A stretch of 64,000 bases of DNA, from positions 3,431-67,430 of IMG/VR virus record IMGVR_UViG_3300026549_000080; one strand, written 5' to 3'. The DNA is from a virus (Duplodnaviria; Caudoviricetes). Below the pieces are notes generated by a model, which saw only the letters and a list, made by a program, of their open reading frames with translations, was not told the DNA's origin and did no database searches. Numbering within the stretch: the stretch's first letter is position 1; each line of letters starts with the position of its first letter. This document shows, piece after piece, positions 52,680 through 61,071 of the stretch. Made by a program: the position numbers and the translations under genes.

Positions 52680-52708
52680 TTGAAAAGTTTTTAAAATTTA
52701 ACTATAAT
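52680..52708 (+). promoter_or_regulatory. sigma70/sigmaA promoter driving the ribozyme/large-RNA locus
   Basis: TTGAAA-AGTTTTTAAAATTTAAC(17)-TATAAT. Confidence 0.75.
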
Positions 52709-52783
52709 AAATATATAAGATAAAGAAACGAAGGGCGACGGTTTCTTGTTTTCCTTTCTACCGTCGCCCGCATCGGATGATGT

Positions 52784-52838
52784 GGCATCAATTAAGACTA
52801 CCTCCTCGTGGTGATGCTGGATAACGCTAAATGTCTTT
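52784..52838 (+). ncRNA. minimal HDV-like (theta-type) self-cleaving ribozyme A
   Basis: P1 GGCATC/GATGCT (G1.U), P2 AAGAC/GTCTT, P3 ACC/GGT, L3 TCCTCGT, P1.1 CC/GG, J4/2 GCTAAA. Confidence 0.8.
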
Positions 52839-52839
52839 G

Positions 52840-53450
52840 GTTAAATTGAATATAAGAACTCAGTGTAGAATTACTAAACCAGTAAGCTGAGGCGCAATGG
52901 AATGAATAGGTCGGGTCAACGAAACAGGGATACTTGTGGATAGGCGCCGTAATAAATAAGGTGACTTATTTATTTAAGTGGGTGGAACCCCAAACCTAAG
53001 TTGTGGCGCTTCTGATTATTGCAAGTAAAAGCAGAGTGTGGGTCGGGTCATAATAGAAGCAATTGTGAATAGCTTTTGCTGAATCAAAGTTAGGCATAAG
53101 ACGTGGAACTCTATGCAACCCTTTGAAATTCCAATAAGACTTTTGCCGTGAAGCAGAGAAATCTGTGTATAAGGCCTGCATGTCGCGTACGAGTAGCTCA
53201 AGGCATGACTTTTAATACAAGAAAAGTGTTTTCTTTTGATAAAGAAAGAAAGAAATTTTATGACCGTAAGGTGGGTGAAAGTTAGAAGTAATCAATCTTC
53301 TACGAGATATAGGACGTAAGTCTGTTGAAAGGTGTAAACCCTTTTGGGGTATGTGAGGTTAAGGTCGCTCCTTAGTCTGCGGACATATCTCCTCGGTGGC
53401 TGAATATACTTGAAAATAGTTAGGGGTAAGGTGAAAATCTCTTTTATTTA
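52840..53450 (+). ncRNA. large structured ncRNA, GOLLD-like
   Basis: ~600 nt without a credible ORF, GC-enriched, many hairpins (AATAAATAAG/CTTATTTATT, TAGAAG/CTTCTA, GAGATAT/ATATCTC); the 3' part resembles GOLLD from memory and was not model-tested. Confidence 0.6.
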
Positions 53451-53490
53451 ATTTAATTTTAAAGGCTTGGGGAAGTTCCCCTTGCCATAT

Positions 53491-53555
53491 GGCGTCATGG
53501 GGTTGCCTTCTCGCGGCGGCGCTGAATAGGGTAAGACACCTGAACTAAAACCTTA
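53491..53555 (+). ncRNA. HDV-like self-cleaving ribozyme B
   Basis: P1 GGCGTC/GGCGCT, P2 TGGGGTT/AACCTTA, P3 GCC/GGC, L3 TTCTCGC, P4 TAGG/CCTG, J4/2 ACTAA. Confidence 0.78.
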
Positions 53556-57413: not shown

Positions 57414-57490
57414 GGACTATTAGCTCAGTTGGTTAGAGCATCCGGCTCATAACCGGCAGGTCGTAGGTTCAAGTCCTACATGGTCCACCA
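57414..57490 (+). tRNA. trnI: tRNA(CAU), Ile2-type
   Basis: Loop CTCATAA; body closely resembles Firmicute lysidine tRNA-Ile2 (GGAC..TAGCTCAGTTGGTTAGAGCA...GGTCCACCA). Confidence 0.8.
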
Positions 57491-59770: not shown

Positions 59771-59909
59771 AAAAATTTGCAATATTTTTAAAATATTGAT
59801 ATAATATATATAGAAAGTGAGAGAGAAGTTCCGCAATCGGCGAGGTTTATTACACCGTACTATGACGGGAAACGCACCAAAGAGTAGTTAAATATCATAG
59901 TATTGACGA

Positions 59910-59982
59910 CGCAGGATGATGCAGTGGTCAGCAGCGGATGCTCATAACTTCCGAGTCGGTGGTTCGAATCCACCTCCTGCAA
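59910..59982 (+). tRNA. trnM: tRNA-Met(CAU), initiator-like acceptor, no encoded CCA
   Basis: C1:A72 mismatch, G2-C71, C3-G70, loop CTCATAA, TTCGAAT T-loop; A73 abuts ribozyme. Confidence 0.82.
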
Positions 59983-60039
59983 GAGATACGATAGTTACTA
60001 CCTCCACGTGGTGTATCTTGGATAATGCTAAAAGTAACT
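59983..60039 (+). ncRNA. tRNA-associated HDV-like theta ribozyme
   Basis: P1 GAGATAC/GTATCTT, P2 AGTTACT/AGTAACT, P3 ACC/GGT, L3 TCCACGT, P1.1 CC/GG, J4/2 GCTAAA; G1 directly after tRNA N73. Confidence 0.88.
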
Positions 60040-60065: not shown

Positions 60066-60132
60066 GCCGCAGTAGCTTAATCGGTAAAGCGTCCTGGAAA
60101 CGGGGAGATGTGGTTCGAGTCCAACGGTGGCT
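60066..60132 (+). ncRNA. degenerate tRNA-like RNA with GAAA tetraloop in place of anticodon loop
   Basis: TAGCTTAATCGGTAAAGC D arm, TCCTG-GAAA-CGGGG, TTCGAGT T-loop; imperfect stems; no CCA. Confidence 0.55.
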
Positions 60133-60254
60133 GAAAGTTTATCTAAGTTATCACGATGGAATGTCGCAGAGTAAACTGCGACCTCGCCGCGAAGGAGAAT
60201 CAGAGCTAAATCAACTTTTGGTAGTAATGTGGTTTAACTACTTATTATACCAAC

Positions 60255-60790
60255 TGACCCATATAAATCCTGAATTGACAGGATAACATGCACACAGAAG
60301 ATGTGCGGAGACGCGAAGCGAAAGTGAGCGTACTCGTCTCGTGAGCGACGTAATGCTATGGGTGAGGCTTGTGTAGCCAACAAGTTAGCAAATACACAAC
60401 TTTTGATAAAGATTCTTATGTACCTCTCATAGCAGCATGTGCAGCTGAAGTATCCAATATAAGAGTCGAACATAATCTATAACAATCCAACATAAGTAGT
60501 TCCGGAACAATGCTTATGAGATCGCCGCCTGACGCAACAGGTCGCGCCTCTGAAATGGACGGGCGTGATACAACAATACTCACCGTGGATTGATCACCAC
60601 AATAATTTCGGAAATGTAGAGAATGGATCCGTGGAACGAGCGAGAAGTTATAGACCAATAAATTGCTCTTACCATTGAGGGCAAATCAATGGCGCGAAGG
60701 TTCCTGCGTAAATGAACCCCTCTGGCATACTGGTTTGTATGCTAACCTGTAAACTATGGGCGGGAGATTAGATTCTCTTACCCATAGGTG
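60255..60790 (+). ncRNA. unassigned large structured ncRNA candidate (~530 nt)
   Basis: Follows putative late promoter; stems ATCCTG/CAGGAT, GAGACG/CGTCTC, CATAAGTA/TGCTTATG, CCATTGA/TCAATGG, GCATAC/GTATGC, CTATGGG/CCCATAG. Confidence 0.55.
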
Positions 60791-60795
60791 TCTAT

Positions 60796-60870: not shown

Positions 60871-60957
60871 TTTACCAGTGTCATGGTACACCTCCTTTTG
60901 ATAGGTCGCCATAGGTTGGTTTTGACTTATGGCGATCGCTTTATATTTTGTTAGATT

Positions 60958-61071
60958 GACGTGGGGTTCTGGTTTAAGCGAGTTCGACTCTCGCGACCCT
61001 GTGATTGTTATCCGCTTTATGGATAATGAAGTCTAACCACTTAAAGTCGTCAGGCCGTTAGGCAGGGCGTC
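60958..61071 (+). ncRNA. small structured RNA containing an isolated tRNA T-arm
   Basis: GCGAG-TTCGACT-CTCGC flanked by GGGTT/GACCC, then TTATCC/GGATAA and GTCTAAC/GTTAGGC stems. Confidence 0.4.

Follow-up and report, generated by a model that had tools for sequence, protein, structure and literature searches.

A phage gene for a tRNA with the anticodon CAU ends at its discriminator base and is followed, at the very next nucleotide, by a short sequence resembling a self-cleaving RNA, which raises the question of how the 3′ end of this tRNA is made and which RNA the neighboring element serves. We analyzed the locus in a stretch of 64,000 nt (the window), comprising most of a 67,430-base IMG/VR virus record (IMGVR_UViG_3300026549_000080) that is estimated to be 57% complete. 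The best explanation, to which we assign a probability of roughly 0.85, is a tRNA-linked theta ribozyme directly 3′ of the phage tRNA(CAU) gene. The features of the locus are the following:

59910–59982, + strand: tRNA with anticodon CAU and no encoded CCA (tRNA-Met(cat) by ARAGORN; 46.5 bits with the Rfam tRNA model, same coordinates)
59982–59983, + strand: predicted self-cleavage site, A73/G1 (position 1 of both Rfam HDV-F-prausnitzii and our covariance model R1 is 59983)
59983–60039, + strand: theta (minimal HDV-like) ribozyme, 57 nt (layout fit to published rows, R1 model, shuffle control)
59983–59989 / 60013–60019, + strand: P1, GAGATAC / GTATCTT, 7/7 pairs including a G1·U wobble
59990–59992, + strand: J1/2, GAT
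59993–59999 / 60033–60039, + strand: P2, AGTTACT / AGTAACT, 7/7 pairs
60000–60002 / 60010–60012, + strand: P3, ACC / GGT
60003–60009, + strand: L3, T-CC-ACGT
60004–60005 / 60020–60021, + strand: P1.1, CC / GG
60022–60027, + strand: L4, ATAATG, without a P4
60028–60032, + strand: J4/2, CTAAA
60028, + strand: predicted catalytic cytosine (C75 equivalent), first base of J4/2 (the column is an invariant C in the 44 theta ribozymes of alignment A1 and the 19 of alignment A2)

The window, with a GC content of 34%, comes from a low-GC tailed phage, and its residence in the Caudoviricetes is evident from the IMG/VR virus record and from genes for Dit, endolysins, an SPP1 holin, topoisomerase II, a DnaB-like helicase and RecJ. 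The phage also encodes a Pol III alpha-type polymerase, an ATP-dependent DNA ligase, an anaerobic ribonucleotide reductase and an NlpC/P60 domain with PG_binding_1; this gene set, including the SPP1-type holin and NlpC/P60 with PG_binding_1, points to a host that is probably an anaerobic member of the Bacillota, and an endolysin query against bacterial genomes retrieved no match. The locus lies in an RNA island (52.7–61 kb) containing 12 tRNAs called by ARAGORN, a ROOL RNA and several degenerate tRNA-like pieces. The phage had been described in a preliminary description as using the standard code, and indeed the window reads well in code 11, with a gain of only around 2% in coverage upon read-through of TAG or TGA, below the 5–10% gain used as the criterion for recoding (PMC10879173). 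Blast comparison of the locus with 50,697 phage records returned one weak partial match, and no close relative of the phage with the locus turned up; the nearest relative found, by way of a neighboring protein of 545 aa (53% identity), has an 82-kb, 70%-complete record in which no theta ribozyme was found.

The theta layout, which consists of a P1 of 6–7 bp starting from G, a short J1/2, a P2 of 6–7 bp, a 3-bp P3, an L3 of the form T-CC-NCGT, a 2-bp P1.1 and a short L4 without a P4, is reproduced field by field at 59983–60039, and none of the ten invariant bases of alignment A1 is missing there. The layout was compared with published RNArobo output rows rather than with the descriptor text; in that part of the source, one row has the same P1, P3, L3 and P1.1 (GAGATAC ... 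GTATCTT), and a 3-nt J1/2 and a J4/2 of CTAAA also occur. The exact strings of the ribozyme and the tRNA had no match among the supplementary-table rows listed for the paper (PMC10879173). G1, at 59983, adjoins A73, at 59982, and thus lies well within the ±5 nt from a tRNA 3′ end that define linkage. Two proposals of the preliminary description therefore stand, namely that the element is a theta-type HDV-like ribozyme with perfect 7-bp P1 and P2, which agrees with the field layout and with a score of 64.5 bits under R1, and that the predicted cut lies immediately 3′ of the discriminator of a CCA-less tRNA(CAU).

That these features arose by chance, with no ribozyme at 59983–60039, is extremely improbable. 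A motif scanner written to the published field layout found two matches in the window, whereas 100 dinucleotide-preserving shuffles yielded 0.01 on average, and the 13-nt core ACCTCCNCGTGGT occurs twice in the window, with 0.06 occurrences expected. Likewise, model R1, for which 19 theta ribozymes from other phages but not the window were used, matched exactly 59983–60039 over model positions 1–57 with 64.5 bits and an E-value of 1.3e-12, E-values from this model being rough owing to a shortened calibration. Together with the complete set of invariant core bases and the exact placement at a tRNA 3′ end, these values outweigh the two observations that would agree with a chance resemblance. The first is that a search of Rfam at gathering thresholds retrieved no ribozyme from the window; HDV-F-prausnitzii (RF02682) aligned, from position 1 at 59983, in a permissive search only, with 25.9 bits and an E-value of 0.013, below its gathering score of 44, as the model includes a P4 that the phage element lacks. 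To our knowledge, there is no theta family in Rfam. The second is that shuffles of the 57-mer reach a nested minimum free energy (MFE) as good as its own (z of −0.09), which is expected for a pseudoknotted fold and hence uninformative. In the nested MFE fold, the tRNA and the ribozyme stay as separate domains.

The helices are also conserved as helices across the family. Among 64 viral loci fetched by the conserved core alone, which makes the test of the helices non-circular, a perfect 7-bp P1 was present in 56 (one with the reversed-partner control) and a P2 with six or all seven of its pairs in 62 (five with the control), and these loci contained 40 distinct helix sequences. Two alignments were used: a MAFFT alignment (A1), for the core columns only, since gaps at the 5′ end misalign P1, and an ungapped subset of 19 members (A2), for pair counts. 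In A2, changes on both sides were found in 15 of the 19 pairs, with a covariation score of 0.815, where shuffles gave 0.19 and slid registers no more than 0.17; the percentage of paired positions in A2 is circular, because its rows were picked with a scanner that demands pairing, and the 64 core-fetched loci are the fairer test. The placement is equally constant: exactly one base, N73, separates position 72 from G1 in 34 of 35 distinct tRNA–ribozyme pairs, 19 of which involve CAU tRNAs.

Theta ribozymes are minimal HDV-like ribozymes of Caudoviricetes (Kienbeck et al., Nat Commun 2024; PMC10879173), and the element at 59983–60039 is a clear further example of this published class rather than a new kind. 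The published set has 1753 unique members; Mg2+-dependent self-cleavage was demonstrated in vitro for four of them, C-to-U mutants being inactive, and the arrangement of a tRNA followed by a theta ribozyme was reported for gut phages in the same work (PMC10879173). In 58% of occurrences the distance between the cleavage site and the 3′ end of a phage tRNA is at most ±5 nt, and 77% of the tRNA-linked ribozymes abut the tRNA within ±1 nt, with tRNA-Met, tRNA-Sup and tRNA-Leu making up more than 70% of the linked tRNAs and CCA encoded in only 4.5% of them (PMC10879173). The phage locus shares with this class the field layout, the core ACC-T-CC-ACGT-GGT, the GG, a 6-nt L4, CTAA(A) and the G1·U pair, as well as the cut directly after the discriminator, the CCA-less linked tRNA, the common tRNA-Met partner and the residence in a tailed phage with a tRNA island. 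It differs in its probable Bacillota host, which is a minority host group in the paper, and in the U30×U40 mismatch of the linked tRNA; additionally, a CCA-adding enzyme and a DRB0094-type RNA ligase are enriched in the published theta phages, and neither was seen in the 57%-complete record analyzed here. The preliminary description had presented the locus as unusual, a view that does not survive the comparison, as the standard code, the Met partner and the missing CCA are all ordinary for the class: 53.0% plus 6.0% of the phages with tRNA-linked theta ribozymes are recoded, leaving around 41% with the standard code (PMC10879173). HDV-F-prausnitzii and the drz family have the same nested double pseudoknot as the element, with G1 at the site of cleavage and a catalytic C in J4/2, and the G1·U pair is likewise a feature of HDV-like ribozymes; from HDV-F-prausnitzii the element differs in its lack of a P4 helix.

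The bases that follow A73 are GAG instead of CCA, whereas a CCA is encoded after all 11 other tRNAs called by ARAGORN in the window, a contrast that had already been noted and that our census supports. Across 30 loci, two kinds of phage carry a ribozyme-linked tRNA. In the first (the window, L085, L041 and L081), nearly all tRNAs encode CCA and the ribozyme-linked one is the CCA-less exception, as in L085 (26 tRNAs with CCA, none without) and L041 (22 with, 2 without); in the second (L084, L128 and L090), all tRNAs are CCA-less and only one is linked to a ribozyme, as in L084 (none with CCA, 18 without) and L128 (none with, 12 without). The ribozyme is thus not simply an alternative to an encoded CCA.

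The set C1×A72, G2:C71, C3:G70 and A73 marks the bacterial initiator tRNA for formylation. In tRNA(CAU) the acceptor pairs are C1×A72, G2:C71, C3:G70, A4:U69, G5:C68, G6:C67 and A7:U66, with A73 at 59982, so that the unpaired 1:72, the two following pairs and the discriminator that make up the formylase determinants are all present. The anticodon stem, conversely, consists of G27:C43, G28:C42, A29:U41, U30×U40 and G31:C39; only the last of the three G:C pairs of initiators (29:41, 30:40 and 31:39) is found, and U11:A24 takes the place of a purine 11:pyrimidine 24 pair. Compared with the bacterial initiator tRNA-fMet, reportedly described by RajBhandary in 1994, the phage tRNA therefore has the same C1×A72, G2:C71, C3:G70, A73 and CAU in a CUCAUAA loop, but differs in having one of the three G:C pairs, U30×U40, an elongator-type U11:A24 and no encoded CCA. 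An initiator-like acceptor without the three G:C pairs, as read earlier from this tRNA, is accordingly what we find. The other CAU tRNA of the phage, at 57414–57490, has G1:C72, C11:G24 and an encoded CCA, a build that resembles elongator or Ile2 tRNAs; in that case, the phage would have no initiator-like tRNA besides the ribozyme-linked one. Among cultured phages, Phaeobacter phage MD18 has the closest tRNA, a tRNA-Met (79% identity) with a similarly built acceptor, which, however, encodes CCA and is followed by no ribozyme. An initiator is our leading, though tentative, reading of tRNA(CAU); that it is an elongator tRNA-Met seems doubtful, and an Ile2 identity quite improbable.

The U30×U40 mismatch and the lowest Rfam tRNA score (46.5 bits) among the 11 intact tRNAs of the window suggest that tRNA(CAU) itself may be impaired. 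It could be decaying or non-decoding, the tRNA–ribozyme pair being an inherited cassette that is kept for some other reason or has not yet been lost. We consider this rather unlikely. It would agree with the low score, with U30×U40 at a position where the class has G30:C40, with an A10/G25 mismatch and with the presence in the same island of degenerate tRNA-like elements, among them the following:

60066–60132, + strand: degenerate tRNA-like element without CCA (31.8 bits with the Rfam tRNA model, gapped or shortened anticodon arm; no ARAGORN call)

Nevertheless, the acceptor, the T arm, the D loop (G18, G19), the T loop (TTCGAAT) and the 7-nt anticodon loop (CUCAUAA) are intact; C26:G44, as read from the sequence, could extend the anticodon stem around the U·U mismatch; and the adjoining ribozyme is flawless in P1, P2 and the ten bases invariant in A1, all of which speaks against decay.

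In a set of 17 distinct ribozyme-linked CAU tRNAs, gathered from viral and metagenome contigs, we scored an acceptor signature, defined as a 1:72 combination other than G:C or C:G plus G2:C71, C3:G70 and A73. The signature was present in 13 of them, and the 1:72 combinations seen were C×A, C×U, U×U, U:A and A:U; the initiator-like acceptor, also singled out as unusual in the preliminary description, is thus common among ribozyme-linked CAU tRNAs. All 17 lack at least one of the three G:C pairs of the anticodon stem, and 14 have G30:C40, which leaves U30×U40 as the odd feature of the phage tRNA. Among unlinked CAU tRNAs from the same loci, 13 of 31 carry the signature, ten of these with an encoded CCA, so that the signature is enriched in the linked set (one-sided Fisher p of 0.02). 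We considered, and rejected, that the fold of the ribozyme might require a weak 1:72, as 1:72 is G:C or C:G in linked Ala, His, Thr and Pro tRNAs and in one Leu tRNA (L075). In most linked tRNAs of other isotypes the 1:72 pair is ordinary, indicating that a weak 1:72 is a trait of the CAU tRNAs rather than something that the ribozyme needs. Initiators are nowhere mentioned in the 2024 paper (PMC10879173), and in the literature searched we found no report tying ribozyme-linked tRNAs to initiators. It is conceivable, albeit a long shot, that the ribozyme-linked CAU tRNAs are a distinct class of phage initiators with a weak or unpaired 1:72, G2:C71, C3:G70 and A73 but a relaxed anticodon stem, whose supply is gated post-transcriptionally by the healing of a cyclic phosphate ahead of CCA addition; if true, the phage, or the state of RNA repair in its host, would control when phage-specific translation initiation becomes possible. 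The initiator-type acceptor of the linked CAU tRNAs and the end-healing step are the only two points at which the locus reaches beyond the published account.

In the mechanism favored by the sequence, the ribozyme at 59983–60039 most likely releases tRNA(CAU) at its last base. The two would be co-transcribed, probably from the following putative promoter:

59777–59805, + strand: sigma-70-like promoter with an extended −10 (TTGCAA, 17 nt, TG-n-TATAAT), predicted by a consensus scan (10/12 matches plus TG) whose hits are not enriched over shuffles

The 57-nt RNA is predicted to fold into a nested double pseudoknot (P1, P2, P3 and P1.1, without P4), in which C60028 and a bound Mg2+ would catalyze the attack of the 2′-OH of A59982 on the next phosphate, cutting between 59982 and 59983. 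HDV-like cleavage is established to produce a 2′,3′-cyclic phosphate and a 5′-OH (PMC10879173), and the cut would accordingly leave the former at A73 of tRNA(CAU) and the latter on the ribozyme. The 5′ leader of the tRNA would be trimmed by RNase P, some enzyme would open and remove the cyclic phosphate, and a CCA-adding enzyme, presumably that of the host, as none was found in the partial phage record, would build the tail. What we observe directly is the agreement in sequence and structure, the family-wide covariation of the helices and the exact placement; that this transcript is cut in vivo, that its end is healed and receives a CCA, and what kind of tRNA it is, are inferences.

In Bacillota, RNase Z cuts CCA-less precursors on the 3′ side of the discriminator. 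The predicted cut falls on this same site, and the ribozyme would therefore act as a cis-encoded stand-in for RNase Z. In Bacillus subtilis, as Pellegrini and colleagues reportedly described in 2003, RNase Z processes CCA-less tRNA precursors; the likeness extends to the cut immediately 3′ of the discriminator and the subsequent addition of CCA, whereas the catalyst here would be an RNA in cis instead of a protein in trans, and the product would carry a 2′,3′-cyclic phosphate instead of a 3′-OH, so that an extra healing step would be needed. Engineered tRNA–HDV fusions resemble the phage locus in that an HDV-type ribozyme directly after the tRNA defines its 3′ end and leaves a 2′,3′-cyclic phosphate, although in the fusions the ribozyme follows the CCA and the end is healed by T4 PNK, as opposed to the cut after N73 predicted here (PMC12381190). 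Such HDV-released tRNA supports translation in a reconstituted system only with T4 PNK (PMC12381190). The argument of the preliminary description that the end must be healed before CCA addition is consequently sound as chemistry (PMC12381190), although the need is class-wide; the regulatory gate that it also proposed remains speculation, as no candidate phage enzyme was found in the incomplete record. We searched the 57%-complete record for a CCA-adding enzyme, RNA ligase, RtcB, PNK, phosphatase, HD and 2H proteins and found none, and searches with PF01743, PF09414 and PF01139 were empty; the Pfam and PHROG scans covered around 50 ORFs, several of which have no family assignment. The 2′,3′-cyclic phosphate on released tRNAs is not discussed in the 2024 paper (PMC10879173), and the healing step concerns the whole theta class. 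Every other tRNA of this phage encodes CCA, which would make the phage a clean system for asking which enzyme heals the end.

The ribozyme could instead mainly serve the RNA downstream, by giving it a defined 5′-OH end or by uncoupling it from the tRNA, with the tRNA 3′ end as a by-product. The downstream transcript would then comprise the tRNA-like element at 60066–60132, which starts 26 nt after the ribozyme, the ORF-poor region 60133–60795 and tRNA-Glu, and the tRNA end could also be made by host RNase Z. We regard this as unlikely for the ribozyme at 59983–60039, even though theta ribozymes do occur apart from tRNAs: around 42% of published occurrences are not tRNA-linked (PMC10879173), and the phage itself has a second theta ribozyme, at 52784–52838, which has no tRNA upstream and abuts the 5′ end of the ROOL RNA, implying that the module is also used apart from tRNAs in this phage. 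Layouts with a hairpin followed by a ribozyme recur in three other loci (L065, L066 and L071), and in some phages with many CCA-less tRNAs only one of these is linked to a ribozyme, so that host processing of CCA-less tRNAs evidently suffices there. Against a purely downstream role, the abutment at N73, found in 34 of our 35 pairs and in 77% of the published linked cases, points to selection on the tRNA end, and the linked tRNA is the only one in the window without a CCA. Moreover, a downstream role and a role at the tRNA end can coexist. Release of the tRNA at its last base by the theta ribozyme hence remains the preferred reading, and the tRNA-like element at 60066–60132 could serve as an RNase P handle to free the spent ribozyme.

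The second theta ribozyme scored 44.3 bits with R1 (E-value of 4.6e-8) and has GGCATC/GATGCT as P1. It is preceded by a strong promoter-like site (52680–52708) and then a 10-bp hairpin (52733–52769), and its last bases coincide with the start of the ROOL RNA (52835–53459), so that the predicted cut would leave the ROOL RNA carrying the ribozyme at its 5′-OH end. The large non-coding RNA at 52835–53459 was identified as ROOL, not GOLLD, by a full-length Rfam match of 286.3 bits (gathering score of 99.1). None of 22 other ROOL loci had a theta ribozyme adjacent to or directly upstream of the ROOL RNA. The theta ribozymes of the three loci with hairpins (L065:614–670, L066:752–808 and L071:895–951) have the same P1, GAGATAC, as the ribozyme at 59983–60039, and are preceded not by a tRNA but by a GC-rich hairpin and a further 6 nt, resembling the context of the ribozyme at 52784.

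Right behind the ROOL RNA, and just after a small hairpin ending in CCA, there is a possible third HDV-like ribozyme, of the type containing P4 (53462–53556; G1 near 53491, P1 GGCGTC/GGCGCT, P3 GCC/GGC, L3 TTCTCGC), which was matched by the scanner only with relaxed J4/2 settings and had no R1 or Rfam score. The region between the tRNA-like element and tRNA-Glu (60133–60795, around 660 nt) has no long ORF on the + strand and two minus-strand ORFs of around 80 aa; by eye it seems richer in G+C than the 34% average of the window, it had no Rfam match at permissive thresholds, and it may be another structured RNA. A terminator-like hairpin (60904–60937) is located 3′ of tRNA-Glu. Finally, a minihelix with a T arm and an acceptor (60955–61000; GCGAG TTCGACT CTCGC, flanked by GGGTT/GACCC), probably left over from a tRNA, is a weak match to the tmRNA 3′ end (13.4 bits).
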